Shown one piece after another: positions 21,896 to 56,790 of a stretch of DNA of 64,000 nt. Every line of letters starts with the position of its first letter. Within the stretch, counting starts at the first letter, position 1. The DNA comes from an uncultured Candidatus Saccharibacteria bacterium (lineage in GTDB: Bacteria; Patescibacteriota; Minisyncoccia; Phycocordibacterales; UBA2100). The stretch spans positions 79,400 to 143,399 of the forward strand of contig CAZUVH010000003.1 of the NCBI GenBank assembly GCA_964623775.1. The letters are read 5' to 3'. The position numbers and the translations under genes are program-made. The notes under the pieces were generated by a model. The model worked only from the letters and a program-made list of their open reading frames with translations. It had not been told where the DNA came from and did no database searches.

Positions 21896-22461
21896 ATCGT
21901 GGGCCACAAAAAGACGAAGGTGAAGATGAATATCCAGATGATGTCGAGGAAGTGCCAAAAGAGGCTCATACACATGAGTTTTGTCAGTGTGCTTTCCGTA
22001 AATCCGCGCAGGTATACGTGGGCGGTGCACACGAGCATCCAGATCGAACCCAGGAATACATGGAAGCCGTGCGTGCCGACGAGCGCGAAGAACGACGAGA
22101 GAAATGCGCTCTCTCGCCAACTATGGCCCTCTGTTAGAAAGGTGTTGAATTCGTTGAGCTCCATTCCCAAAAATGCGAGGCCCAGTAAGAGCGTGATTGC
22201 GAGGCCAGCGATCGTAAGATTTCGCTTTTTCGCGTATGCCGCGAGCACGGCAAGTCCTACGGTGAAGCTCGAGGTGAGGAGAAGCAGTGTTTCGACAAAG
22301 ACATAGGGGAGCGAAAAAAGTTCTTGGGGTAAGGGAGAACCGAACGTAGCCGTATGCAAGACGGCATACGCGGCAAAAAGTCCTGCAAAGAGGACACAGT
22401 CGCTCATGAGGTAGATCCAAAAGCCGAATACGACGCGGTCAGTGTTTTGCTGATGGATCAT
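21892..22461 (-). CDS. cyoC: cytochrome o ubiquinol oxidase subunit III
   Basis: Heme-copper oxidase subunit III family by sequence pattern and operon position. Confidence 0.9.
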
Positions 22462-24401
22462 AGATATTTTTTCTCGAGAGCGGCAACCTCGTGCGCCGGT
22501 ATAGTGTATTCGACCTCCTCTTCAAATGAGCGGACGATCAGTGTGATCGGGATCAGGATAAAGCCGAGTATTGCGAGCCACCAGATGTGCCATACGATCC
22601 CAAAACCCAAGGCAAAACTGCATGCTCCGATAATGAGACCGATTGATGTATTTTTCGGCATATGGATATCCTCGAACACCTCCGGTGTTTTGAGGGAGCC
22701 TTCTTTAATCATGAGGTACGCATCTCGTCCATGCACGTGCGGGATCGTTGCGAAGTTGTACGTGGGGACAGGCGTGTGCGTAGACCATTCGAGCGTGCGG
22801 CCGTTCCACGGATCGTGTGTCATGTTGTGCTTACGTTGGATCACGCTCACTATTACCTGTATTACCTGCAGTAAGAGCGCAACCGCGATGACACATGCAC
22901 CGATTCCAGCGAGCACCAGGAGGGAGTACCACTCGCTCGATTGCTCAATATTGTAGAGGCGGCGCGTCATACCCATGATGCCGAGTGCGTAGAGCGGTAT
23001 AAACGCGAGTATGAAGCCGACGATCCAAGTCCAGAATGCCCATGTGCCGAGAGTCTCGTTGAGCGTGAATCCCATCACCTTGGGGAACCAGTACGTAAAT
23101 CCCGCAAAAAAGCCAAAGAGCACCCCGCCGATGATCACGTTGTGGAAGTGCGCCACGAGGAAGAGGCTGTTGTGCACCTGGAAGTCGATCCCCGGTATCG
23201 CGAGCAAGACGCCCGTCATCCCGCCGAGCGTGAAAGTAAATACGAATCCCATAAACCACAGCATCGGCGTTGTGAAGATGATTCGGCCGCGGAACATTGT
23301 GAAGAGCCAGTTGAAAATTTTGACACCGGTCGGGATCGCGATCGCCATCGTCGCGATACCAAAAAAGGCATTTACATTAGCGCCGGCGCCCATTGTAAAG
23401 AAGTGGTGCGCCCATACGATGTACGACAAAAAGGTGATGACGACCGTCGCCGCGACCATCGATGTGTAGCCAAACAATTTTTTTTGCGAGAAGACGGGCA
23501 CGATCTCCGAGAAAATGCCGAATGCGGGCAAAATGAGGATGTATACCTCGGGGTGTCCCCAGGCCCAAATGAGATTCACATACATCATCGCGTTGCCGCC
23601 CAGATCGGTGGTGAAAAAATGCATGCCAAGCGTGCGATCGAGCGAGAGCATGGCGAGCGTGACGGTGAGAATAGGGAAGGTAAAGAGGACGAGAATCATA
23701 CTCGCGAGCGACGTCCAGCAGAAAATCGGCATGCGCATCATCGTCATGCCGGGAGCGCGCATCTTGATGATCGTCACGATGAAATTTACGGCCGATATAA
23801 GCGAGCCCGCGCCCGCGATCTGTATCGCCCATATATAATAATCGACGCCGACACCTGGCGAGAATTCCAGTTCGGAAAGCGGCGGATACGCGAGCCACCC
23901 CGTGGCGGCAAATTCACCAGCAACGAGGGAGAAATTGAGCAACATTGCCCCGGCGACAGTAAGCCAGAGGCTCATCGCGTTGAGGAGGGGGAACGCCACA
24001 TCGCGCGCGCCGATTTGGAGCGGCACGATGAAATTGATAAAGCCAAACACGAACGGCATCGCGACGAAAAGGATCATAATGACGCCGTGCGCGGTGAATA
24101 TCTGTGCGAAGTGATCGGGCGAGAGGAATCCCACACTGTCGCCGACCGAGAGGGCTTGCTGGGCGCGCATCATAAGTGCGTCGATCGCGCCGCGCGTGAT
24201 CATGACGATCGCGAGTACGATATACATGACACCGATTTTCTTTGGATCAAGCGACGTCAGCCACTCCCGCCAGAGCCATGTCCATCGCCTGAAATATGTG
24301 AGGAGCAAGACGACGGCGAGCATGCCTAAGACGACGGAAAGTTGCCCGAATGTCTCGATGGGGCCGTGAATGAAATCCTCGATGGTAAGTATTCCCAGCA
24401 T
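22458..24401 (-). CDS. cyoB: cytochrome o ubiquinol oxidase subunit I
   Basis: Heme-copper oxidase subunit I signatures ([14 protein letters not shown] and the His ligands). 647 aa. Confidence 0.95.
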
Positions 24402-24403
24402 GG

Positions 24404-25291
24404 TTACATTTTATGCATGTCAGCCCCGGGCTGATCGGCCTCGGGCTGAAATTTCGCTATGATCGTATTAAACATTTCGCGGTCCACTGCTCCATAATAG
24501 ATGACCTTGGCGACCGATGGTGCCGCAAGCGCGGGATACGTATCTGTATTCAATAGATAGGGAGATTGTCGCACTTCCTCTGTCCAGCGATCGAAATCTT
24601 CCTGCGAGAGGGCGTGAGCCTTGAACCGCATTCGAGAAAAACCGTCGCCGCTGTAATTGGCCCCCGTGCCGTCGAAGATGCCGATTTCATCGGCGACGAG
24701 ATGGAGTTTCGTCTGCATGCCTGTCATAGCGTAGATTTGTCCGCCGAGCTGAGGGATCCAAAATGAATTCATCGGAGCATCGGCAGTGATCGAAAAGGCG
24801 AGTTGCCGGTCGACCGGAAACCTGGCCTCGTTTACCGAAGCGATGCCGTACTCGGGATAGATAAAAAGCCATTTCCAATCCAATGCCACAGCCTGAATTT
24901 TCACGGGCTGACCTTCCATCGAGAGGGGTTTATGCGGATCAAGCTCGTGCGTGCTGATCCATGTAAGCGCGCCGAGCACGAGTATGATCTCAAAGGGAAT
25001 TGCCCACCAGATGAGCTCGTCCACTTTTGCGTGCTCCCAATTGGGCATGTAGACGGCTTTGGTATTACTCGCTCGGTAGCGCCATGCGAAAAAAGCGGCG
25101 AGGATGAATACCGGTATTGCGACGACGAGCATGAGAAGTGTCGCGTATATAAGAAGGCTGCCTTCTTGTGCCGCAATCAGTCCTTTGGTCTCAAGGAGCG
25201 CAAGCGTCTTGCCGGAAAGCAGGTACCAAAAGATTCCCGCGATACCGAAGGAGACGAAAAGCGAAAGAGTTATTTTGTAATATGTCTTCAT
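24404..25291 (-). CDS. cyoA: cytochrome o ubiquinol oxidase subunit II
   Basis: Subunit II fold without a CuA site. Lipoprotein-like N-terminus. Start uncertain between 25291 and 25306. Confidence 0.85.
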
Positions 25292-25359
25292 GGTTGAAGT
25301 ACACAATCACTATAGCAGTATTAAAAAGAGAGAGCCGACCAAAATGGTCGGCTCTGTGT

Positions 25360-47024: not shown

Positions 47025-47843
47025 CTAATCACCGTAGGCCTTTTTAAGGAGATCGGTGATCGGATTCTCTGTCCAGGCGGATGTCACGAAATTGTGGTGG
47101 AGGAATGTGCCCTCGACTTTTATAACCACGATCATGCCCGGGAGGAGGCGCTGAGGGGGCTCTCGCTCGATCGGCACCTTTTCTTCTCGAAGAGCATTCT
47201 CAAATTCTCGTACACGTCGCTGCGTCGTCTCGGTGTGCGCAGTCACAAAATATCCTTGTCGACGCTTTGCGACACGAATCGCATATTCGAAAAAGATTTC
47301 CTGCGATCCGTAATGCGCATCGAGTAGCACGACACCGTCCAATACCGCATGGCTGTGCGAAATCACCATCTTTGTCGGCCAGTGACCGGCGCTGTACCCG
47401 ATGAGCACGATTCGCGCATCCGCAAATTTTTTTGGCGACGTGTTGAGCGTCTTTGCAAATACAACGGAGGCATCGTTCAAGAATTTCTTGAATGCGCCCT
47501 TGTCTGCAAACGGCACGCCGTGTTTCTTTTTGATCGGATACGGCATAAGGGGTGCGACCACGACCGCGTTCACCTGAGCGTCGGCGATCTGCTGCGCTAT
47601 GCGCTGTCTCTCGAGCATCGCCTCGAATGATTCGAATGGACGAAGACCGTGGAAATAGACGACAACAGTGATTCTTTTTTCCAAATCGAGATCGCGCGAA
47701 ATACCGAAAAAGACATCCGCACCCTTTGGCGCACTCTGCAGGGGTTGTATCAATGTGATCGGTGGGTCGGTCTCTTCCGCTCTTGCATTGGTCATCGCGA
47801 TCACGAATGCGAACGCGAATACAATCGATCGCACTATTCGCAT
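47025..47843 (-). CDS. secreted alpha/beta-hydrolase-like protein (GYSAG nucleophile-elbow-like)
   Basis: Signal peptide. GYSAGH motif. Last gene of the HK operon. Hairpin GCCCCTCGTAAGGGGC after the stop. Confidence 0.5.
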   Translation of the reverse strand: MRIVRSIVFAFAFVIAMTNARAEETDPPITLIQPLQSAPKGADVFFGISRDLDLEKRITVVVYFHGLRPFESFEAMLERQRIAQQIADAQVNAVVVAPLMPYPIKKKHGVPFADKGAFKKFLNDASVVFAKTLNTSPKKFADARIVLIGYSAGHWPTKMVISHSHAVLDGVVLLDAHYGSQEIFFEYAIRVAKRRQGYFVTAHTETTQRRVREFENALREEKVPIEREPPQRLLPGMIVVIKVEGTFLHHNFVTSAWTENPITDLLKKAYGD

Positions 47844-47918
47844 GAGAGATCTCCTTTCTCTCTCTACACTATTGCAACGATCACAGAGAGTGCAAGTCCA
47901 CGTAGCACCCTAATGTGA

Positions 47919-49940
47919 TCACTCTTCTCTCTTGAGTGGGAGGTGAATAGTAATAGTGGTGCCCGTGTGGGCGGTACTCTTGGCGCTGACGGTTCCGCCA
48001 TGCGATTCGATGATGCGCTTGGTGATCGCGAGGCCGAGCCCGCTGCCGCGGACATCCTCGCGCGGCTTTTGTGCGCGGTAGAAACGCTCAAAGATGTGAT
48101 CGATATCGCTCTCAGGTATCCCAATGCCGGTATCACTGATCGAAAGCGTCGCGCGCGTGCCATCTTTCTCAAGTGAGAACGTAATCGCCTTCTCGCCCTG
48201 CGGGCGCATGTATTTTACGGCGTTACTCGCGATATTCATGATCGCTTCGCGGATCTGCTGAGCATCTCCGCTGATGACAACGTGTGGGGTGATCGAGCTG
48301 TGTACACGTATGTCGCGCGAGGTCGCTATGACGGAGATCTCTTCCGCAATTTCTTCGAAAACATGGCTCAGATCGAATGGAGTGTGCGAGGTAGGGGCCC
48401 CGTGCTCAAGCTTGGCAAGTTTGAGGAGATCGTACGTAAATGCGGAGAGACTCGCGAGCGATTTTTCAAACGTGCGGATTTCTACATCGTCTGGCATTGC
48501 CCGTTTGAGTCGCTCAATCTTTGTCTGGAAAATGGCGAGCGGCGTCTGCAGATTGTGCGAGATATCAACCATCATTTGCTTCTGATTTTCTTGGGCGAGG
48601 CGTAGCTCTTGTGTCCGCATCGTGACTTTGTCTTCCAAATCGGCGGCGTGCCTCCTCACCTCGTCGTAGAGTCGTGCTCGCTCGAATGCGATCGCAGCCT
48701 GGTTGGAAAATGTATCGATGAGGCGCCGGTCGACTGCCGTGTACGGATCACCGGAGCGCTTGTCTCCGAGTACCACTTCACCCGACTGGCGTATTGAAAT
48801 TGATTGAGGGTGGAAGACCTCTTCGAGGATTTCCCTGGTCCTGTATTCCATGGCACCGAATTCGACATTGCGATGAAGCGCTTCGCTGAGCGCATGGAGC
48901 GTCTTGCCGTAATCGTACTCATCTTTAAAAAAGATCTTACTCGTCACTTTTCTGAAATACCGCTCAATGAAGGGGACACCGAAAATGCCAAGCACGGTCG
49001 TCACCCCGGCGCTGAAGAAAATGGAGCGTGGGCTCGTGCCGAAAATAAATCCGACGACCATGACGAGGCTGATATAGACACTGATAATGAGCGCGAGGAG
49101 CGCCGTATATATCAACCCGCGCTGAATGATGACGCGTATATCCATCAATTCGTGCCGAATGATCGCGTAGGCAGCTGCCGCGAAAAATACAATCGAGCTC
49201 ATTGGACCTACCAGGTTGAATGTTGAATTGCCTGCGAGTGCGGGAAGTAAGACGTCACTCATAAGTGTGCATGCGATAAAAATCCCCAAGCCAAGCATCA
49301 GATACTTTAACTGTAAGCGCGTTTTCTTATCGGCGTGTATATAGCTGAGAATTAAGAGCGCTGAGCTCCAAATGATGTAGATTCCAAGACCGAGACCGTA
49401 CCATATCAAAAGCGGGCCAATCACGGGACTGATGTTTCCATCCGGTTCGATAACCATATTTTGAACCAGTAGACCGGAGGGAATGATGAAAAGTGCAGCC
49501 ACGACAAAAGGAATATATATGTACCACTGCATCATGCGCGTTTTTTCTTTACGTGCGGGGAAGGTTTGCGCAAACAAAAATAATCCGAGCACAAGAATGA
49601 GCCCTCCGTAATGGATGCATTTATCGAAGAGAAAATTCCCTGTGATGCTGAGGAGTGCGATCCCTGCAACAAAGAGTGTCGCCCCGCTTGTTAGGACAAA
49701 GAAGGATCGATTGATCGAATTGCGCGGACTTTTATAGAGGACATACCCCCCAACAGCAGCGATGCCGAGAGCCAGCAAAAGTAGGCCGTAATTATTGGCG
49801 GCAGTAGAGACGGTAAGCATGAATGCACTGATAATAACAAATGACCCGATCGAAATCTCGATCGGGTCACTTTCATGCGAGTGACAGGATTTTACGCGCT
49901 TTTTTCGCAAGCACGTTTTCAATTTGCTCAAGCTGTACAA
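47919..49940 (-). CDS. sensor histidine kinase with large polytopic N-terminal membrane domain
   Basis: H-box HNLQTPLAIF. HATPase N/G boxes (NAVKYM, GLGLAI). More than 6 TM helices at the N-terminus. The start may lie downstream of 49940. Confidence 0.85.
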   Translation of the reverse strand: MYSLSKLKTCLRKKRVKSCHSHESDPIEISIGSFVIISAFMLTVSTAANNYGLLLLALGIAAVGGYVLYKSPRNSINRSFFVLTSGATLFVAGIALLSITGNFLFDKCIHYGGLILVLGLFLFAQTFPARKEKTRMMQWYIYIPFVVAALFIIPSGLLVQNMVIEPDGNISPVIGPLLIWYGLGLGIYIIWSSALLILSYIHADKKTRLQLKYLMLGLGIFIACTLMSDVLLPALAGNSTFNLVGPMSSIVFFAAAAYAIIRHELMDIRVIIQRGLIYTALLALIISVYISLVMVVGFIFGTSPRSIFFSAGVTTVLGIFGVPFIERYFRKVTSKIFFKDEYDYGKTLHALSEALHRNVEFGAMEYRTREILEEVFHPQSISIRQSGEVVLGDKRSGDPYTAVDRRLIDTFSNQAAIAFERARLYDEVRRHAADLEDKVTMRTQELRLAQENQKQMMVDISHNLQTPLAIFQTKIERLKRAMPDDVEIRTFEKSLASLSAFTYDLLKLAKLEHGAPTSHTPFDLSHVFEEIAEEISVIATSRDIRVHSSITPHVVISGDAQQIREAIMNIASNAVKYMRPQGEKAITFSLEKDGTRATLSISDTGIGIPESDIDHIFERFYRAQKPREDVRGSGLGLAITKRIIESHGGTVSAKSTAHTGTTITIHLPLKREE

Positions 49941-50445
49941 GATACGGTCTCATGTCGCCGCGAGCATAATACTCCCTACAGGATTCATCGACCGCGATGA
50001 TATCGAGAGCGTAATCGATGTCCCAAAAAGCGATACCTAGGCGCATTACGTGACGATGGACATCGTTATTATGCTCCACCAATCCGTACAACTTCCCTTT
50101 AGAAAGTGCATACACGGTAGCGGCGTATATCGCCAGCGCCCCAGCTTGCGGTGAGATTGATGCCCATCGACCGTACTGCATCCCATTATCGGTCGTGAGT
50201 CCCAAAGGAAACGATTGTTTTTCCAATCGGTATATTCGCTCCAATGCGAGCTTTCCGTCGGCGCCAGGCCACTCGACACCTATGCACGCGACGACAGTGC
50301 AATCTTTCTCGACGACAGCGTATACGTCGGCAATTGGCGGCACTGTGTTGTATGTCGACATATACACTTTATCGACGAACGACCTCACGGCCGCCTTGTC
50401 AGGAGGGGATTCCGCGTAACGTGCAGTAAAACGTTTACTACTCAT
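49873..50445 (-). CDS. hypothetical protein co-transcribed with the ThiF-like enzyme (possible acyltransferase fold; unassigned)
   Basis: ORF. Overlaps the thiF-like stop by 8 nt with the 50445 start. Alternative start at 50517. Confidence 0.45.
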   Translation of the reverse strand: MSSKRFTARYAESPPDKAAVRSFVDKVYMSTYNTVPPIADVYAVVEKDCTVVACIGVEWPGADGKLALERIYRLEKQSFPLGLTTDNGMQYGRWASISPQAGALAIYAATVYALSKGKLYGLVEHNNDVHRHVMRLGIAFWDIDYALDIIAVDESCREYYARGDMRPYLVQLEQIENVLAKKARKILSLA

Positions 50446-51433
50446 GAGCGCACTCTTTTCTCTCCACCGCCTTCGCACAATGGAAGCCTGCATCAAAATA
50501 AAGATACCCGGGTGCACGAACGGGCCTCACTAGATTACGAACGATGGGGGACGCCCGCAAAAGATGAAAAAGCACATGATCGGCCAGAAAGCCGCTCGCC
50601 ATCGGTGGATTCGTACTCACGATCGTTGCACGGTTTTCCTCGAACAATCTCTTTTTTGCCACCTCGACATTGCTGTATGCAGCCGTGTCGGTCGTGTATT
50701 CGGGTAATTCAGGCACAAGACCTGTCAGCACCTTGCGCATGACCAGGTGCACCTCCTGGGGCGATGCCGTTCGCGACTGAATTCGTTCCTGAAGATTTCT
50801 TGCTTCCGGGTATGTGAGGTTTAAAAGTTGTTCCATCGTGTATCCGTCCGGCTCGAAGCAGAAGAGCCGCGTGCCAAATCCCACGGTGTTGCAATTAAGG
50901 ACGGTTATACCGAATGCGCGTGCTTTTTGATGTAGCAGAATCCGTGCACCGACCGCCCAGAATTCGATCTCATCGCAGACGATATCGCATCCTTGCAGAA
51001 AGGACGCGGCCGTGCGTTCGTTAATACCTTGTGGATATACAACGAGCGTCGTGTCATCGCTAACGGCGCGCACCATTTTTGCTGTCTCGAATGCTTTCGA
51101 TTTTCCAACAGTGTTGCGACCGGCGGCATATTGTCGATTGATATTCGACACGTCGAATTCTTCGCAGTCGGCGATACGCACTTCACCAACACCGAGGCGC
51201 ACGAATATAGAGGCGAGGAGTCCGCCCATGCCGCCGCAGCCAGCAATGCCGACGACAGCACCGCGCAACATCTCTTGTTCCTCTCGTGTGATCCACCCAA
51301 TATTGCGATCAGTGCGCTCCGCGTAGTAATCTCGGTCAGCCCTCCGTGGCAGCAGACGATAGACCGTATCGCGGTCGACTTTCCTGGGAAGAATTTTGCA
51401 TTCAACGACTGGAAGCCCATGACCTTGCATCAT
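50438..51433 (-). CDS. ThiF/MoeB/HesA-family E1-like adenylyltransferase
   Basis: Rossmann GIAGCGGMGG about 60 aa from the N-terminus. E1-like nucleotide-binding core. AGGAG RBS. Confidence 0.8.
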   Translation of the reverse strand: MMQGHGLPVVECKILPRKVDRDTVYRLLPRRADRDYYAERTDRNIGWITREEQEMLRGAVVGIAGCGGMGGLLASIFVRLGVGEVRIADCEEFDVSNINRQYAAGRNTVGKSKAFETAKMVRAVSDDTTLVVYPQGINERTAASFLQGCDIVCDEIEFWAVGARILLHQKARAFGITVLNCNTVGFGTRLFCFEPDGYTMEQLLNLTYPEARNLQERIQSRTASPQEVHLVMRKVLTGLVPELPEYTTDTAAYSNVEVAKKRLFEENRATIVSTNPPMASGFLADHVLFHLLRASPIVRNLVRPVRAPGYLYFDAGFHCAKAVERKECAHE

Positions 51434-51554
51434 TTGATTTCTCCTGTATAGGTTATGTAAAGAACGACTACTCTCACAATCGTAAATGCACGTCGATTGT
51501 CGATAGGTGAAATAAAAATAAATATCTGCTGAAAATCGGATAAATTATTTATGA

Positions 51555-51590
51555 GATAAAAATAAAGCGCCCCGCAAAACGGGGCGCTTT
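51555..51590 (-). terminator. terminator after the methyltransferase gene, followed by about 130 bp of AT-rich promoter region
   Basis: GCGCCCCG-CAAAA-CGGGGCGC with TTTATTTTTATC on the minus strand. Confidence 0.7.
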
Positions 51591-51592
51591 GA

Positions 51593-52300
51593 TCACATTT
51601 TTTTGGCAACTACTGTCAGTGCATACGGCTCGTGCACAAATTTCTCCATAAAGGCACGCAGTGCGGGATTATTGGTTGCTTTGATTATGGCATCGATCTC
51701 TTCTCTCGTGCACTTTGATGCTGATAGGCTCGCCACGCAAAATCCGCTTTTTGTCATGAGTTCGCAAACAGTCTCCTGCTGCTCGGGGTAAAGAATGAAT
51801 TCTTCTCCCAAGAGCGAGAGAGAAAGCCGCTCAGGAGTCTCCGGCTTCGCATACCAACACGTAAATACGACGGTGCCGCCGATGCGAAGGATGCGATATT
51901 TCTCGGCGAGTACCTGCAGCTTCTCCTTTCGAGGCACATAATCGATCGAAAAATACGAGACGACTGCATCGAAGGATTGCCCCAGGAAGGGGAGATGGAG
52001 CATTGATGCGTTGCGTACATCGAGTCCGCGGCTACAGGCACGTGCGACATACGCGCGCGAGATATCCACACCCACCGTATCCGCACCCCGAGAATTCATT
52101 ATGGTCATGAGCCTTCCTGAGCCGCATCCGACATCAAGTATGCGCTTTCCCTGTATCGACCCCATCGAGTCCTCGAGTGACTCGACCATATGTGGGTACG
52201 CGATCCGCGTGTTGAACAAATCTGTCTCCGTATCGTACCGTTCGCCCGCGCGATTGTACGAACGCCGCACTCTTTTGAGAATCGTTCCAATGGTCTCCAC
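51593..52300 (-). CDS. class I SAM-dependent methyltransferase
   Basis: Motif I ILDVGCGSGRL. A GTG start at 52300 preceded by GGAGGAGG is preferred over the TTG at 52324. Confidence 0.8.
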   Translation of the reverse strand: METIGTILKRVRRSYNRAGERYDTETDLFNTRIAYPHMVESLEDSMGSIQGKRILDVGCGSGRLMTIMNSRGADTVGVDISRAYVARACSRGLDVRNASMLHLPFLGQSFDAVVSYFSIDYVPRKEKLQVLAEKYRILRIGGTVVFTCWYAKPETPERLSLSLLGEEFILYPEQQETVCELMTKSGFCVASLSASKCTREEIDAIIKATNNPALRAFMEKFVHEPYALTVVAKKM

Positions 52301-52404
52301 GAGACACCTCCTCCGTTTTTGCAATGATCAACTACTTATAAAAGAATCGCACGAAAAAGATCAAATATTGCTCAATTAAAAATAATATCGGGATAGACAA
52401 ACGT

Positions 52405-53073
52405 TCAAACCCCGATCTTGTAGCCTCTTCCGGGTACAGTCTGTATCAGCCTGTTTTTGCCGATATCCCCGATTTTTTTGCGTAAGCTCAAAATATGAGA
52501 CTCGATGGTGTTGGAGAAAATATCGACACTCATATCCCACACATGCTCAAGTATCATTCCTCGCGAAAGTACGGTGCCTTCGTTTTTCATGAGGTAACGA
52601 AGCAGCATAAATTCTTTTCGTGTCAGGTTTAGTTCCTGATTTTTCCGAGTGACAATGCATCGCTTCGTATCGAGCGTCAGGTCACCGGATTGCAATACCT
52701 CTTCCTCGATCCCCTGGGGTCTGCGCAAAAGTGCCCGCACTCGGGCAAATAATTCGACGAGTGCAAACGGTTTCGTCAGGTAGTCATCGGCCCCGGCATT
52801 GAGCAGATCGGCTTTCTGCACCGTGTCCGCTTTTACGGAGAGTATGAGAATGGGAGTTGTTTTACCACTCGATCGGATCTCGCGGCATACCTCAAGACCA
52901 CCCTTTTTGGGGAGGACATTGTCCAGAATAATGAGGTCATAGTCGTTGATCTGGGCTTGGTAGAGCCCTTTTTCACCATCTTCGACGACATCCACGGCAA
53001 AATACTCCGCCTCGAGGGAATCCCTCAGGAAGTCGGAAATGTGCTTTTCATCCTCTACGATCAGTATACGCAT
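52405..53073 (-). CDS. OmpR-family two-component response regulator
   Basis: Receiver domain (LIVEDE...DLIILD) plus a C-terminal winged-helix DNA-binding domain. Confidence 0.9.
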   Translation of the reverse strand: MRILIVEDEKHISDFLRDSLEAEYFAVDVVEDGEKGLYQAQINDYDLIILDNVLPKKGGLEVCREIRSSGKTTPILILSVKADTVQKADLLNAGADDYLTKPFALVELFARVRALLRRPQGIEEEVLQSGDLTLDTKRCIVTRKNQELNLTRKEFMLLRYLMKNEGTVLSRGMILEHVWDMSVDIFSNTIESHILSLRKKIGDIGKNRLIQTVPGRGYKIGV

Positions 53074-53144
53074 ACCCCTTTATATATCCTTTATCTTCAC
53101 TTTATCAAAATTTGAATGCAAATAAGGTATTTTCCTAGAACGAC

Positions 53145-53522
53145 ATGAACAATACCAAAAAGGTCCTGATCGTCGAGCACGACATTGCGTTTCGGAATAT
53201 TCTGAAAGGTAATTTGAGTCAATTGGGATTTATGGTGCACGATGAAGAAAATTGCGACACAGGTCTCACCACTGCATTGCGCGAACATCCGGATCTTATC
53301 ACGCTCGATGTGGATATGCCTGGAAAAAGCGGGATCACATTGCTCAAAAATCTGCGGAGCGACGAGTGGGGAAAAGGGGTCCACGTAATTCTTCTCGCAG
53401 GAGCGGACGAGATCAAATTTCTCGCCGAGTCACTTGGGAATGCGACATATGAGTATGTCACGAAAAACGAGCAGGCAATTCAAGCAATCGTAGATACCGT
53501 AAAAAGGAAACTCCTCAACTAA
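53145..53522 (+). CDS. stand-alone response-regulator receiver domain (paralog of the 25987 gene)
   Basis: LIVEHD, DLITLDVDMPGKSG. Shares an SDEWGKG / EDAWGKN segment with the 25987 protein. Confidence 0.8.
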   Translation: MNNTKKVLIVEHDIAFRNILKGNLSQLGFMVHDEENCDTGLTTALREHPDLITLDVDMPGKSGITLLKNLRSDEWGKGVHVILLAGADEIKFLAESLGNATYEYVTKNEQAIQAIVDTVKRKLLN

Positions 53523-53944: not shown

Positions 53945-55156
53945 ATGCTCGACCTCAAAAAATCGTATGCCCGCTCGCTGCAGCCGGGCGTGCTGCATTT
54001 TGCGGCGCACAGCCATCATCTGCGCCCCGATATTACCCGGGACGCGACGATGCAATGCTGGGACGACGCAGCGCGAATGCTCGACAGGAAGTGGGGGTAC
54101 ATTTTTGGTACGGTAATCCCCGAGGCGCAGAAGAATGTAGCAGAGCTTCTTGGTGTCGGTAGGCCGGAAAACATCGCGTTTGCCGGCAATACGCACGAAT
54201 TCGTGGCGCGCATCTTGAGCGCGTTTAATCCGACGAGAGAGAAGCCGCTGCGTGTCCTTACGACCGACAGCGAATTCAACAGCTTCACCCGCCAAATGGC
54301 GCGGACAGCTGAAAATCCTCATGTGCATGTGACAAAGGTTCCTGTGAGTCCGCGCCACACGTTTGCACAACGCCTCATGACGCTCACGAATACCGTGAAT
54401 TTCGATCTCATCTTCTTCAGTCAGGTGTTTTACAACTCCGGCTTTCGAATACCGGATGATGAGATGGAGATTATCGTCGACGGGATCTCACAGTCGATAT
54501 TGTCTTCCAATGCGGTGATCGTGATCGACGGCTACCATGGCTTTTGCGCGGTGCCGACATCGCTGAAGGCGATCGAGGATCGTGTCTTCTATCTCGCGGG
54601 CGGATACAAATACGCTCAGTGGGGTGAAGGTGCATGCTTTCTGTATGTGCCTCCGGCCTGTACGCTCAGGCCGGAAAATACCGGATGGTTTGCGAGTTTC
54701 GGCACTCTCGAGAAGGGGTCGCAGTCGTCGAATCTCGTATCCTACAGCGACGATGCGTTCCGATTCTGGGGCGCGACATTCGATCCGGCAGGCTTGTACC
54801 GTCTGAATGCGGTCTGCGACTGGATGCGCGAGAAAAAGATTACCGCGCAAGAGCGTTGGTATCACGTGCTCACCCTGCAATCGCACTTTCTCCAGTCTGG
54901 AGTGAAATCTAGATATTTTGAGCTATCAAAACTCGTCACGCCACTACCGCGGGCGCAGCGCGGGAATTTTCTGAGCTTCGACCAAGGGGATGAGGGGAGC
55001 GCTTCTACACTCGTCGAGAAGCTCGCAGTGCGCGGAGTGATCGTGGATTCTCGCGGGCCTCTGATTCGCATTGGCTTCGGCATCTATCACGACCTCAGTG
55101 ATGTTGATCAGCTCATCAAAACCATCGAATCGTTGGAGGCAGAGTATGTACGCTAA
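53945..55156 (+). CDS. kynU: kynureninase (PLP-dependent, aminotransferase class V fold)
   Basis: GGYKYAQWGEGA matches the kynureninase PLP-lysine block (C)TYKYLNGGPG. WFASFG resembles WFGH. C-terminal RGVIVDSRGPLIRIGF resembles RGVIGDYREPRIMRFGF. Confidence 0.75.
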   Translation: MLDLKKSYARSLQPGVLHFAAHSHHLRPDITRDATMQCWDDAARMLDRKWGYIFGTVIPEAQKNVAELLGVGRPENIAFAGNTHEFVARILSAFNPTREKPLRVLTTDSEFNSFTRQMARTAENPHVHVTKVPVSPRHTFAQRLMTLTNTVNFDLIFFSQVFYNSGFRIPDDEMEIIVDGISQSILSSNAVIVIDGYHGFCAVPTSLKAIEDRVFYLAGGYKYAQWGEGACFLYVPPACTLRPENTGWFASFGTLEKGSQSSNLVSYSDDAFRFWGATFDPAGLYRLNAVCDWMREKKITAQERWYHVLTLQSHFLQSGVKSRYFELSKLVTPLPRAQRGNFLSFDQGDEGSASTLVEKLAVRGVIVDSRGPLIRIGFGIYHDLSDVDQLIKTIESLEAEYVR

Positions 55157-56234
55157 TGCGGTGACACCGCTCGGGTTTCTCTCGATCAATCCGCGGCTAA
55201 AAGTGGAGGGAGTCGGGCGAGTTTCCAGACTCGCGCGACAATTGCCGAGTCTTATCGCTGCGGGAAGCGATGTATTGCGCAAGGAGCTTATTGCGCTGCC
55301 GTTTCTTGCGAACGTACCTGCAGTAGATGCGGGGCGGCTGCGTGCGCTCATGCGAGATTATCATTATCTCCAGAGCGCATACGTGCACGCCGAGCCAGGA
55401 GTCACGAAGATTCCAGCCACACTTGCTGTGCCATCGTTCTTGGTCGCGCAAGTGCTCGGGCAAAAACCGATACTCTCGTATGCTTCGGTTGTCTTGGAAA
55501 ACTGGGAGTTTGAGTGCGAAGGCATCACAAACCTCGGTATCCGACCGATCGTCACTTTTACGGGGACTGAAGACGAAAAAGGCTTCATCCTCGCGCATGT
55601 GCGCATCGAAGAGAAGGCGGGCGACGCGCTCCATACGCTTCCGTTGTTGTTCGACGATGTGCGACAGCGACGTGAAGACGAGGTGCGTGAAAGGCTCATG
55701 CACATGGCGCAGACGATAGCTGCTGCTCGCGTGCTCTTTAGGGCTATTACCAAGCTCTGCGATCCGCGCGTGTACTTCGATCGTATACGGCCGTGGATGT
55801 ACGGATTCAAGGGTGTCGTCTACGAAGGCGTGCCCGAGTATCAGAATCTTCCGCAATCGTTTATCGGAGCGAGTGGAGCGCAGAGCTCCGTCTTGCCGGC
55901 ACTCGACGCGGCACTCGGTATTTGCCACGACAGTAGTTATTGCTCGGCCTATGTCGAGAAATTGCGACTGTACATGCCGCCTGGTCACAGACGTTTTATC
56001 GAAGGGTCGGAGAATGCACCTTCCTTGCGGAAATTTGTGCTCGAATCAGGTAGTGCTGATTTGAGACATGCGTACAATGCCGCAGTCGAAAGTCTGCGCG
56101 CATTTCGTGTCGCTCACACTGGGTTTGCGACTCGCTATATCGGAATGTATGGCAAGGTACGTGGCACGGGAGATACGCATTACCAGGAACTTTTCGAGCA
56201 GTACGAAAAGGACACTGAAGCAGCATTGCTCTAG
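55146..56234 (+). CDS. indoleamine 2,3-dioxygenase (IDO) homolog
   Basis: Blocks align to eukaryotic IDO: VYEGV....GASGAQSS (GGSAGQSS), LRLYMPPGHRRFI (MRRYMPPAHRNFL), SLRKFVLESGSADLRHAYNAAVESL ([25 protein letters not shown]). GGAGG RBS. Confidence 0.8.
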   Translation: MYANAVTPLGFLSINPRLKVEGVGRVSRLARQLPSLIAAGSDVLRKELIALPFLANVPAVDAGRLRALMRDYHYLQSAYVHAEPGVTKIPATLAVPSFLVAQVLGQKPILSYASVVLENWEFECEGITNLGIRPIVTFTGTEDEKGFILAHVRIEEKAGDALHTLPLLFDDVRQRREDEVRERLMHMAQTIAAARVLFRAITKLCDPRVYFDRIRPWMYGFKGVVYEGVPEYQNLPQSFIGASGAQSSVLPALDAALGICHDSSYCSAYVEKLRLYMPPGHRRFIEGSENAPSLRKFVLESGSADLRHAYNAAVESLRAFRVAHTGFATRYIGMYGKVRGTGDTHYQELFEQYEKDTEAALL

Positions 56235-56292: not shown

Positions 56293-56790
56293 TCAAGACT
56301 TGTCGTTATTTTCGGGAGTGATGTGCTCCGATGAGTCGAGATTGGGGCCCACATGAAAGGCGCGACCAAATCCTTCGACATACCTTCCATGCATCGGCGT
56401 AAGGCGGAAAAGTGTGAAGTCCGCAAGCGATCTGATCTCGGGGAATCTACTACCAAATTTCTTCTCAAAGAGTCCCATTACCTTGATCCACACCGCGCAC
56501 TCTCGCGGTACATCTGTGACATCACAACGACATGTGTAGCGCCTGCGCGCAAAAACGTTGGGCGAATTACTTTCGTCGTCGATAAACATAATGCTCGCTT
56601 TTTGGGTCGCGAGTAGATCGCGTGTGTGAGCCGAGAGGGAGCTCGTGTAGATATAATACGAACCCTCATGCTTCACGAATGGAGCGTAGCTTGATGTCGG
56701 CCATTCGTCTTCGCCAACAGTCGCGAGCTCAAGAGTCTTTCTTGTCGCGACGAATGCCGCTGCGCGTTGCTCTGGTGTCTTCTTCATCAC
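56293..56790 (-). CDS. pyridoxamine 5'-phosphate oxidase-like FMN-binding split-barrel protein
   Basis: PNPOx-like N-terminal pattern and size. Family-level call only. Confidence 0.6.
   Translation of the reverse strand: MMKKTPEQRAAAFVATRKTLELATVGEDEWPTSSYAPFVKHEGSYYIYTSSLSAHTRDLLATQKASIMFIDDESNSPNVFARRRYTCRCDVTDVPRECAVWIKVMGLFEKKFGSRFPEIRSLADFTLFRLTPMHGRYVEGFGRAFHVGPNLDSSEHITPENNDKS

Follow-up and report, generated by a model that had tools for sequence, protein, structure and literature searches.

What is made, and what is sensed, where a predicted adenylating enzyme of the ThiF/E1 type is encoded between a response regulator and a sensor kinase? This question is raised by a minus-strand gene group at positions 47,025 to 53,073 of a 64,000-nucleotide stretch of contig CAZUVH010000003.1 from an uncultured Candidatus Saccharibacteria bacterium (hereafter "the window", meaning this whole 64-kb stretch). 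A preliminary description, made from the sequence alone, had suggested that the group makes or modifies a signal read by its own two-component system, and had likened it to microcin C biosynthesis. The present analysis leads to a more specific reading, whose chances we put at about even, namely that these genes may form a self-contained quorum-sensing-like module, found mainly in Patescibacteria, which makes and senses its own small molecule derived from an N-acyl amino acid.

Gene order and conservation of the cassette

All six minus-strand genes lie in the order and at the positions first proposed for them, with Pfam and NCBIfam assigning domains to the RR, the methyltransferase, the ThiF-like protein and the kinase, and the terminator, the AT-rich leader of about 130 nt and the 8-nt gene overlap are all present as described. 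The features of the locus are the following.

52405..53073, minus strand: OmpR-family response regulator (RR) (Pfam Response_reg 5.8e-27 and Trans_reg_C 1.5e-25)
51593..52324, minus strand: class I S-adenosylmethionine (SAM) methyltransferase, Methyltransf_11/25 (Methyltransf_11 2.8e-18)
51564..51590, minus strand: intrinsic-terminator-like hairpin closing the RR-methyltransferase unit (12-bp stem with 8 GC pairs, then a ATTTTTAT T-run)
51502..51545, minus strand: four degenerate TTTA/TTTC half-sites with 11-bp spacing in the leader of the ThiF-like gene, candidate RR boxes
50438..51433, minus strand: predicted ThiF/E1-like adenylating enzyme, 331 aa (Pfam ThiF, residues 42-205)
49873..50445, minus strand: 190-aa GNAT-fold acyltransferase of the acyl-homoserine lactone (AHL)-synthase / N-acyl-amino-acid-synthase type, T_hemolysin-like, as assigned from a fold model
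49839..49872, minus strand: terminator-like hairpin separating the kinase gene from the 190-aa gene (15 pairs, including 7 GC; T tail weak)
47919..49820, minus strand: polytopic sensor histidine kinase (HK), 633 aa (HisKA and HATPase_c, nine predicted transmembrane (TM) helices)
47025..47843, minus strand: 272-aa protein with a signal peptide and a GYSAG motif
53079..53105, plus strand: perfect triple direct repeat (C)TTTAT with 11-bp spacing, in the gap that separates the RR start codon from the divergent receiver gene
53145..53522, plus strand: stand-alone receiver-domain protein, 125 aa (Response_reg 9.1e-16)

An AT-rich leader of about 130 nt separates the terminator at 51590-51564 from the ThiF-like gene, the ATG of the 190-aa reading frame overlaps the stop codon of the ThiF-like gene by exactly 8 nt, and a second hairpin (49872-49839), absent from the preliminary description, stands directly 3' of the 190-aa gene. 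Rfam and tRNA scans of the window gave no matches.

A scan of one genome per species led to 46 fetched loci, 38 of them with an evaluable downstream flank; the open reading frames (ORFs) of these loci are simple longest-ORF calls, searched with the window proteins and with acyltransferase hidden Markov models. The order RR, ThiF-like gene, homologue of the 190-aa gene and polytopic HK recurs in about 34 of the 38 evaluable loci, on one strand and with short or overlapping junctions, and the hosts are nearly all Patescibacteria (Taylor-, Adler-, Nomura-, Azam- and Doudnabacteria, and Paceibacterota). An RR orthologue (43-72% identity) lies directly upstream of the ThiF-like gene in about 28 loci, and HK orthologues (35-43% identity, TM region included) lie directly downstream of the acyltransferase gene in about 34. 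For the ThiF-like protein, 391 homologues were detected at 50-70% identity, and those with a named source are nearly all from Patescibacteria; the nearest relatives, which are the basis for placing the window in Patescibacteria, are from Taylorbacteria at 67% and, for the RR, from Adlerbacteria at 72%. The arrangement lies far beyond chance, and it is near certain that the genes form a functional module and are not neighbours by accident. Synteny thus bears out the module first proposed, and since the ThiF-like protein does not group with housekeeping MoeB or ThiF and its neighbours are strongly syntenic, the finding stands.

The edges of the module are drawn by the same comparison. Two cassettes (L037 and L038) run directly from the ThiF-like gene to the kinase gene with no acyltransferase gene between them, so that either this gene has been lost or the partner is encoded at another site. 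None of the other fetched loci has a counterpart of the 272-aa protein, orf160 or orf138, which are outside the module; the stand-alone receiver gene (53145-53522) is not conserved beside the cassette in the other loci, and no cassette includes an exporter or immunity gene. The 272-aa protein had been called secreted and alpha/beta-hydrolase-like, of which the signal peptide and the GYSAG motif stand, while the hydrolase assignment is backed by no Pfam, NCBIfam or PDB sequence match, nor by any similarity to the Legionella alpha/beta hydrolase.

The enzymes and their proposed chemistry

The 190-aa protein, first listed as unknown, is on its fold model (pLDDT 91) and on variants of the cassette an acyltransferase with the fold of AHL synthases and N-acyl-amino-acid synthases (LuxI/FeeM). 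Fold searches, which settled the assignment, placed the model closest to AHL synthases and FeeM, with scores of 12.7 for FeeM (N-acyl amino acid synthase) and 12.4 for EsaI, and with ordinary GNAT acetyltransferases first interleaved among these matches and then below them (best GNAT, 12.5). Its identity to LuxI-type AHL synthases (TofI, LasI, EsaI, RpaI, MesI) is 9-13%, a PDB sequence search with the family profile gave marginal GNAT matches (E 0.01), and the Pfam scan of the window protein gave no Autoind_synth (PF00765) match and did not reach the FeeM or Acetyltransf_5 thresholds. Against Pfam T_hemolysin (PF12261) the window protein scores 21.5 bits, below the gathering threshold of 27, which is passed by the family members P0160 (27.3), P0242 (30.1) and P0128. 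The family has 410 members, most of 180-210 aa, as counted by an exhaustive HMMER profile search of 1.84 billion representatives, word-indexed searches with the 190-aa protein having given only 3 and then 9 proteins. Its conserved positions are P36, E69, Q90, G92, R93, W94, G137, Y159 and Y160.

Variants of the cassette lend independent support to a LuxI/FeeM-like identity, because in L009 and L028 the slot of the 190-aa gene is taken by a protein with Pfam matches to Acetyltransf_5, Autoind_synth or FeeM, the Autoind_synth match of the L009 protein being weak (4.5e-4). Gene fusions show the same pairing: a domain of the FeeM/Acetyltransf_5/Autoind_synth type is fused at the C-terminus of the ThiF homologues P0034, P0044, P0045 and P0051, and a domain of the 190-aa type is C-terminally fused to ThiF in P0031, P0048, P0069, P0070, P0088, P0089, L012 and L020. 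Acyltransferase domains are the only ones found fused to ThiF. An hhalign comparison of the 190-aa family profile with the Salmonella and Rhizobium etli GNATs was not significant.

The ThiF-like protein is modelled with confidence (pLDDT 93.7). About 40 residues with two short strands precede its Rossmann fold, and some 100 residues specific to the family extend beyond the E1 core, in a helical region at about 200-290 and in a C-terminal hairpin. Residues G65-x-G67-G68-x-G70, S96/N97/N99/R100/Q101, K113 and D154 are invariant in 34 homologues; the nucleotide-binding and adenylation motifs are intact, and D154 probably corresponds to D217 of TrzS, judging from the ThiF motif. Three "hypothetical protein" models top the NCBIfam ranking (PRK08223, 147.6 bits; PRK14851, 114.1; PRK14852, 75.4), with ThiF (64.7 bits), the Rv1355c/TrzS family (62.9) and MoeB (50.4) further down, and the protein is neither a housekeeping enzyme nor a TrzS orthologue. 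Its best structural match is AclA of Tenacibaculum discolor (PDB 9egb/9egc/9egd), a ThiF-type protein whose structure, released recently, is titled as "in complex with substrate"; we found no paper on its function, and it may inform on small-molecule ThiF enzymes.

The methyltransferase keeps the place in the module that it was first given, in an accessory role. Its family is found directly upstream of the ThiF-like gene, in the same slot, only in L034, L039 and L017. Two members of the 190-aa family (P0143 and P0215) are fusions of a 190-aa domain with a methyltransferase that aligns to the window enzyme over its full length (31-32% identity, E 1e-38 and 3e-41), and the P0143 fusion sits in a cassette of RR, ThiF and fusion gene. 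The ThiF-acyltransferase and acyltransferase-methyltransferase fusions therefore tie all three enzymes together. Present in five cassettes overall, the fusion locus included, and absent from most, the methyltransferase is an accessory tailoring enzyme that belongs to the module yet is dispensable in most lineages.

The pairing of an N-acyl amino acid synthase (NAS) with a ThiF-like enzyme is of an already known kind. OxzAB (bioRxiv 10.1101/2020.06.11.147165), TyzABC (PMC10404671) and TrzAS (PMC12856293) each combine such a synthase with a ThiF-like, ATP-dependent cyclase. In this acyl-oxazolone route the synthase produces an N-acyl amino acid from acyl-CoA (PMC10404671, PMC12856293), the ThiF homologue (TyzB, OxzB or TrzS) cyclises it to a 5(4H)-oxazolone at the expense of ATP, and an oxidase of the nitroreductase superfamily desaturates the ring; with TrzS, the saturated cyclised intermediate accumulates or becomes detectable once the oxidase has been disabled (PMC12856293). 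Activation of a carboxylate as its adenylate is common to all ThiF-family enzymes (bioRxiv 10.1101/2020.06.11.147165), and in Stieleria clusters a methyltransferase is encoded alongside the NAS-ThiF genes (PMC12479983).

By analogy, the 190-aa enzyme would N-acylate an amino acid or a related carboxylate-bearing amine, and the translationally coupled, sometimes fused, ThiF-like enzyme would adenylate that carboxylate with ATP and then cyclise the product, as TyzB, OxzB and TrzS do for 5(4H)-oxazolones. No nitroreductase/FDO was found beside or fused to ThiF in the cassettes, where only the methyltransferase ever intervenes between RR and HK, so that the product, if cyclisation occurs, would differ from the known oxazolones and might be a saturated oxazolone, another ring or an activated ester. 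The SAM methyltransferase would add a methyl group in the window genome and a few others. Because the cassette encodes no exporter, the product is presumably lipophilic and in no need of one, and would partition into membranes. We regard this enzyme chemistry as perhaps fairly probable. The nearest flavoprotein in the window, a PNPOx-like protein (56293-56790), is not of the nitroreductase family and does not lie beside the cassette in other loci.

Sensor, regulatory DNA and flanking genes

The two-component pair is of the classical type, with receiver and Trans_reg_C domains in the RR and HisKA and HATPase_c domains in the HK. The kinase most likely starts at the ATG at 49820, giving 633 aa, the same length as called on an independent contig. 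Nine hydrophobic segments with short loops occupy residues 11-285, there is no large extracytoplasmic domain, and no Pfam domain is assigned to the N-terminal part, where a faint GAF signal is all that was found. Such an all-membrane sensor resembles those of LuxN, CqsS and AgrC.

In the window's ThiF leader, the stretch at 51502-51545 reads ATTTATCCGAT TTTCAGCAGAT ATTTATTTTTA TTTCACC, about 112 nt before the ThiF ATG. Across 33 ThiF leaders, TTTA[CGT] pairs at spacings of 11, 22 and 33 were observed 16, 10 and 6 times, against 0.66, 0.47 and 0.54 in shuffles. These shuffles kept mononucleotide content only, for which an intergenic control drawn from 197 other intergenic regions of the same loci compensates: there were 16 pairs with 11-bp spacing per 4.2 kb of ThiF leaders and 14 per 50.7 kb elsewhere, an approximately 14-fold difference in density. 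The motifs typically lie 65-95 nt before the ThiF start codon. Direct repeats with an 11-bp periodicity are what OmpR/PhoB-family regulators recognise, and the 11-bp-spaced TTTA(Y) repeats are candidate RR boxes. The perfect triple TTTAT-N6-TTTAT-N6-TTTAT at 53079-53105 is the only match to this pattern in the window (0.02 expected); it begins at a distance of 6 nt from the RR start codon, and the stand-alone receiver gene follows 40-66 nt downstream. This gene may be a target of the RR and a member of its regulon, its membership of the module being uncertain. Perfect triples of a similar kind are found a short way upstream of the RR gene (L009 and L014) and upstream of ThiF (L005 and L006).

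A hairpin with a T-run separates the acyltransferase and kinase genes in 14 of 32 loci, and a strict scan found hairpins between the RR (or methyltransferase) and ThiF genes in 6 of 24. With hairpins on both sides of the biosynthetic pair, the ThiF and acyltransferase genes thus look insulated, as a unit under the control of the regulator that is set between sensor genes with expression of their own. In the proposed circuit, the nine-TM kinase would detect the product within the membrane and phosphorylate the OmpR-type regulator, which would bind the TTTA(Y) repeats, spaced 11 bp apart, both upstream of the terminator-insulated ThiF-acyltransferase operon and beside its own gene, resulting in autoinduction. 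That the kinase senses the product is perhaps at, or a shade under, an even chance.

Other genes of the window are given here for context. A trio adjoining the cassette comprises a kynureninase-like pyridoxal-phosphate (PLP) enzyme (53945-55156, plus strand; Aminotran_5 and KYNU_C), an indoleamine 2,3-dioxygenase (IDO; 55071-56234, plus strand; 8.7e-65) and the PNPOx-like flavoprotein (56293-56790, minus strand). These annotations suggest a route from tryptophan via kynurenine to anthranilate, unusual for a presumed Patescibacterium; the kynureninase-like and IDO genes have no counterpart in the other fetched loci. Further away, a haem-copper oxidase subunit I (22458-25306, minus strand; COX1, 2e-149) lies beside a subunit-II-like protein (COX_ARM), terminal oxidase genes in a genome whose nearest relatives are Patescibacteria.

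Rival readings and known systems

Synteny, the candidate RR boxes and the all-membrane sensor indirectly favour the proposal that the module makes a signal sensed by its flanking HK and RR. The conserved gene order, the fusions, the folds, the intact ATP-binding motifs, the periodic repeats and the insulating hairpins are observations; the substrates, the cyclisation, the ligand of the kinase and the binding of the repeats by the RR are what we infer. Several points weigh against a quorum-sensing-like module. The nitroreductase/FDO of every characterised oxazolone pathway is absent here, and the alignment of the 190-aa family contains no invariant catalytic residue beyond G137. All NCBIfam scores of the ThiF-like protein fall below cut-off, at 147.6 against 266 bits for the best model, PRK08223, and at 62.9 against 476 for the Rv1355c (TrzS) model, and the repeat match in the window's own ThiF leader is weak and degenerate. 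A saturated oxazolone is hydrolytically labile and hence a poor diffusible signal, adjacent two-component systems often answer cues other than the product of the operon, and Patescibacteria usually lack fatty-acid synthesis, which puts the source of the acyl donor in question.

In the main rival account, the same enzymes make an effector rather than a signal. The product would then be a membrane-active lipoamino acid or a reactive azlactone, serving as an antibiotic, a haemolysin-like surfactant or a modifier of host membranes or of the cell's own envelope, and the kinase would respond to an outside cue, for example host contact or envelope stress, rather than to the product. Patescibacteria are typically host-dependent, the 190-aa family borders on Pfam T_hemolysin, a family with members annotated as haemolysins, and relatives outside Patescibacteria lie in biosynthetic clusters with exporters, a polyketide synthase (PKS) or a fatty-acid-CoA ligase, and without HK or RR. 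In addition, N-acyl tyrosine derivatives are antimicrobial and oxazolone production is stress-induced in proteobacteria (PMC12856293). However, the tight four-gene linkage with a single kinase family and its conserved TM domain fits product sensing better, and the cassette has no exporter or immunity gene, while candidate RR boxes before the biosynthetic operon are compatible with either model. We consider an effector role unlikely, though it is the most serious of the alternatives.

The order of the two enzymatic steps could also be reversed, which appears improbable. The ThiF-like enzyme would then adenylate a fatty acid, another carboxylic acid or an amino acid, and its GNAT-fold partner would take the acyl-adenylate as donor, a synthesis of N-acyl compounds independent of CoA and acyl carrier protein for organisms of minimal metabolism. 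The fusions do run ThiF first and acyltransferase second, and Patescibacteria are generally without fatty-acid and CoA biosynthesis. Activation of carboxylates as adenylates by the ThiF family would likewise suit this order (bioRxiv 10.1101/2020.06.11.147165), but in the three characterised systems the acyltransferase acts first, with acyl-CoA, and ThiF second (PMC10404671, PMC12856293). Moreover, the R. etli relative has its own fatty-acid-CoA ligase, implying an acyl-CoA donor there. We know of no LuxI/FeeM-fold enzyme that uses acyl-AMP.

The microcin C-like pathway first suggested, in which an MccB-like enzyme adenylates the C-terminus of a small ribosomal peptide and a methyltransferase and an acetyltransferase act as accessories, now seems very improbable. 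The cassette has in common with MccB and PaaA an E1-like adenylating core. Unlike in those enzymes, no N-terminal peptide clamp is present, only about 40 residues standing before the Rossmann core, and the sequence match to MccB is confined to residues 51-116 of the ThiF-like protein. No Asn-terminated precursor micro-ORF had been seen in the leader, and an exhaustive scan agrees, finding no Asn-ending ORF there with any start codon, alternative starts included, on either strand; 25 homologous leaders also contain no precursor ORF, Asn-terminated or conserved, with only two unrelated chance ORFs ending in N and most leaders lacking an ATG ORF of at least 5 aa. The partner is LuxI/FeeM-like rather than an MccE-type acetyltransferase, and the methyltransferase is missing from most cassettes. 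The analogy with peptidyl-nucleotide pathways therefore fails, rejected on the missing clamp, the missing precursor and the different set of partners. Least credible of all, a housekeeping sulfur-carrier-activating enzyme (ThiF, MoeB or TcdA-type) located by chance in a two-component locus has in its favour that the best sequence matches in the PDB are TcdA and E. coli ThiF (E ~1e-15) but is all but excluded by scores far below the equivalog cut-offs (ThiF 64.7 against 275.25, MoeB 50.4 against 449, TcdA 39.3 against 304), by the lack of a ThiS or MoaD gene nearby or in the cassette, by the family-specific residues beyond the E1 core, and by the obligate, conserved linkage and fusion to an acyltransferase.

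In a bolder reading, the module could represent a previously undescribed class of cell-cell or symbiont-host signalling in Patescibacteria (the Candidate Phyla Radiation, CPR), in which a nitroreductase-free N-acyl-amino-acid heterocycle is read by a nine-TM kinase and autoinduction is driven by an OmpR-type regulator; we advance this tentatively, as somewhat less than an even prospect. Candidates for the heterocycle are a saturated acyl-oxazolone and, by a route independent of AHL synthases, an acyl-lactone or an acyl-lactam. In the searchable literature we found no description of an oxidase-free version, of the T_hemolysin-like branch of acyltransferases, of obligate embedding within a two-component system that has candidate autoregulatory boxes, or of the distribution in Patescibacteria, and nothing relevant on quorum sensing or an AHL synthase in Patescibacteria/CPR or on thermostable hemolysin/PF12261 with ThiF. 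Patescibacteria are abundant, mostly uncultured and host-dependent, and have kept very few regulatory systems; a signalling role for a cassette kept in many of their lineages would offer a concrete way into their communication, whether among themselves or with hosts. NAS and ThiF chemistry would be extended to a nitroreductase-free version tied by gene context to a candidate receptor, in a module small enough for direct testing by heterologous expression. The physiological role of acyl-oxazolones has been described as a major open question (PMC12856293), and the reading, if true, would supply a first receptor and physiological role for the oxazolone/N-acyl amino acid lipid family.

Relatives of the enzyme pair also occur in other genetic settings. 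In Legionella norrlandica LEGN (L023 9215-13737, NZ_JNCF01000003.1), a ThiF (50% identical) / 190-aa pair has no HK or RR, and its neighbours encode an iron enzyme of haem-oxygenase-like type, an alpha/beta hydrolase and an MFS transporter; the same pair is found in a gammaproteobacterial metagenome-assembled genome (MAG; L024), which suggests horizontal transfer between Patescibacteria and Legionellales. As a cultured carrier of the pair, L. norrlandica is an experimentally tractable organism. An alphaproteobacterial MAG (L016 9977-19051) encodes a ThiF homologue (55% identity) followed by a 2650-aa polyketide synthase (KS-AT-DH...), and in an Anaerolineales MAG (L044 9755-12214) a Beta_elim_lyase (PLP) domain is found in fusion with a ThiF domain that is more distant.

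Plasmids carry relatives of ThiF that are more distant (28-33% identity, near full length), and there an N-transferase is paired with ThiF, usually with an exporter. The cluster on R. etli pRetIE4771a (L053 3974-10523) comprises an alpha/beta hydrolase, ThiF, a FeeM-type GNAT, a DMT transporter, an EctB-like diaminobutyrate transaminase and a long-chain fatty-acid-CoA ligase; its product may be a derivative of N-acyl-diaminobutyrate, from which ThiF could form a lactam. GNAT, ThiF and a methyltransferase occur together in Salmonella, the last being an unrelated LCM-type enzyme that we rejected as a homologue of the one in the window. ThiF is accompanied by a formyltransferase and MFS in Bacillus (L051, B. 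toyonensis pBT001) and Corynebacterium (L054, C. tuberculostearicum plasmid), and by a carbamoyltransferase-like protein on S. epidermidis pKUHPSE03-3 (L049), a small plasmid with an MFS transporter gene elsewhere. These three relatives (about 33% identity), with a local regulator nearby and located on small plasmids of human skin bacteria or, in the Bacillus cereus group, on large ones, have the look of small-molecule cassettes, so far uncharacterised, that follow the same N-transferase and ThiF rule. By analogy, the present ThiF clade may activate the carboxylate of N-acylated, N-formylated or N-carbamoylated amino acids.

Among characterised systems, OxzA/OxzB (Pseudoalteromonas rubra), TyzA/TyzB/TyzC and TrzA/TrzS (Mycobacterium tuberculosis) likewise have an N-acyltransferase of the AHL-synthase/FeeM fold beside or fused to a ThiF-family enzyme, and the Stieleria clusters share with the present module a methyltransferase. 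In contrast to these acyl-oxazolone systems, the cassette described here has no nitroreductase/FDO gene or domain, its acyltransferase is in most loci of a T_hemolysin-like branch rather than of the TyzA/OxzA type, its ThiF-like protein falls outside the Rv1355c NCBIfam family to which TrzS belongs, and its genes are embedded in a dedicated HK/RR pair in Patescibacteria. Compared with FeeM-type N-acyl amino acid synthases (Pfam FeeM, Acetyltransf_5), the window protein stays under the Pfam thresholds. LuxI-type AHL synthases have a similar fold at low identity and with no Autoind_synth match on the present side; unlike in LuxI systems, ThiF as an obligate partner implies that a free carboxylate is left on the product, and the receptor would be a kinase rather than LuxR.

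The closest parallels in circuit design are LuxM/LuxN, CqsA/CqsS, Legionella lqsA-lqsR-lqsS and staphylococcal agrBDCA, autoinducer cassettes whose kinase has no large periplasmic domain. While their chemistry and enzymes differ from the ThiF-like and LuxI/FeeM-fold pair, the logic of the predicted circuit is the same: a synthase, a polytopic kinase and a regulator are encoded together, and autoinduction is presumed.

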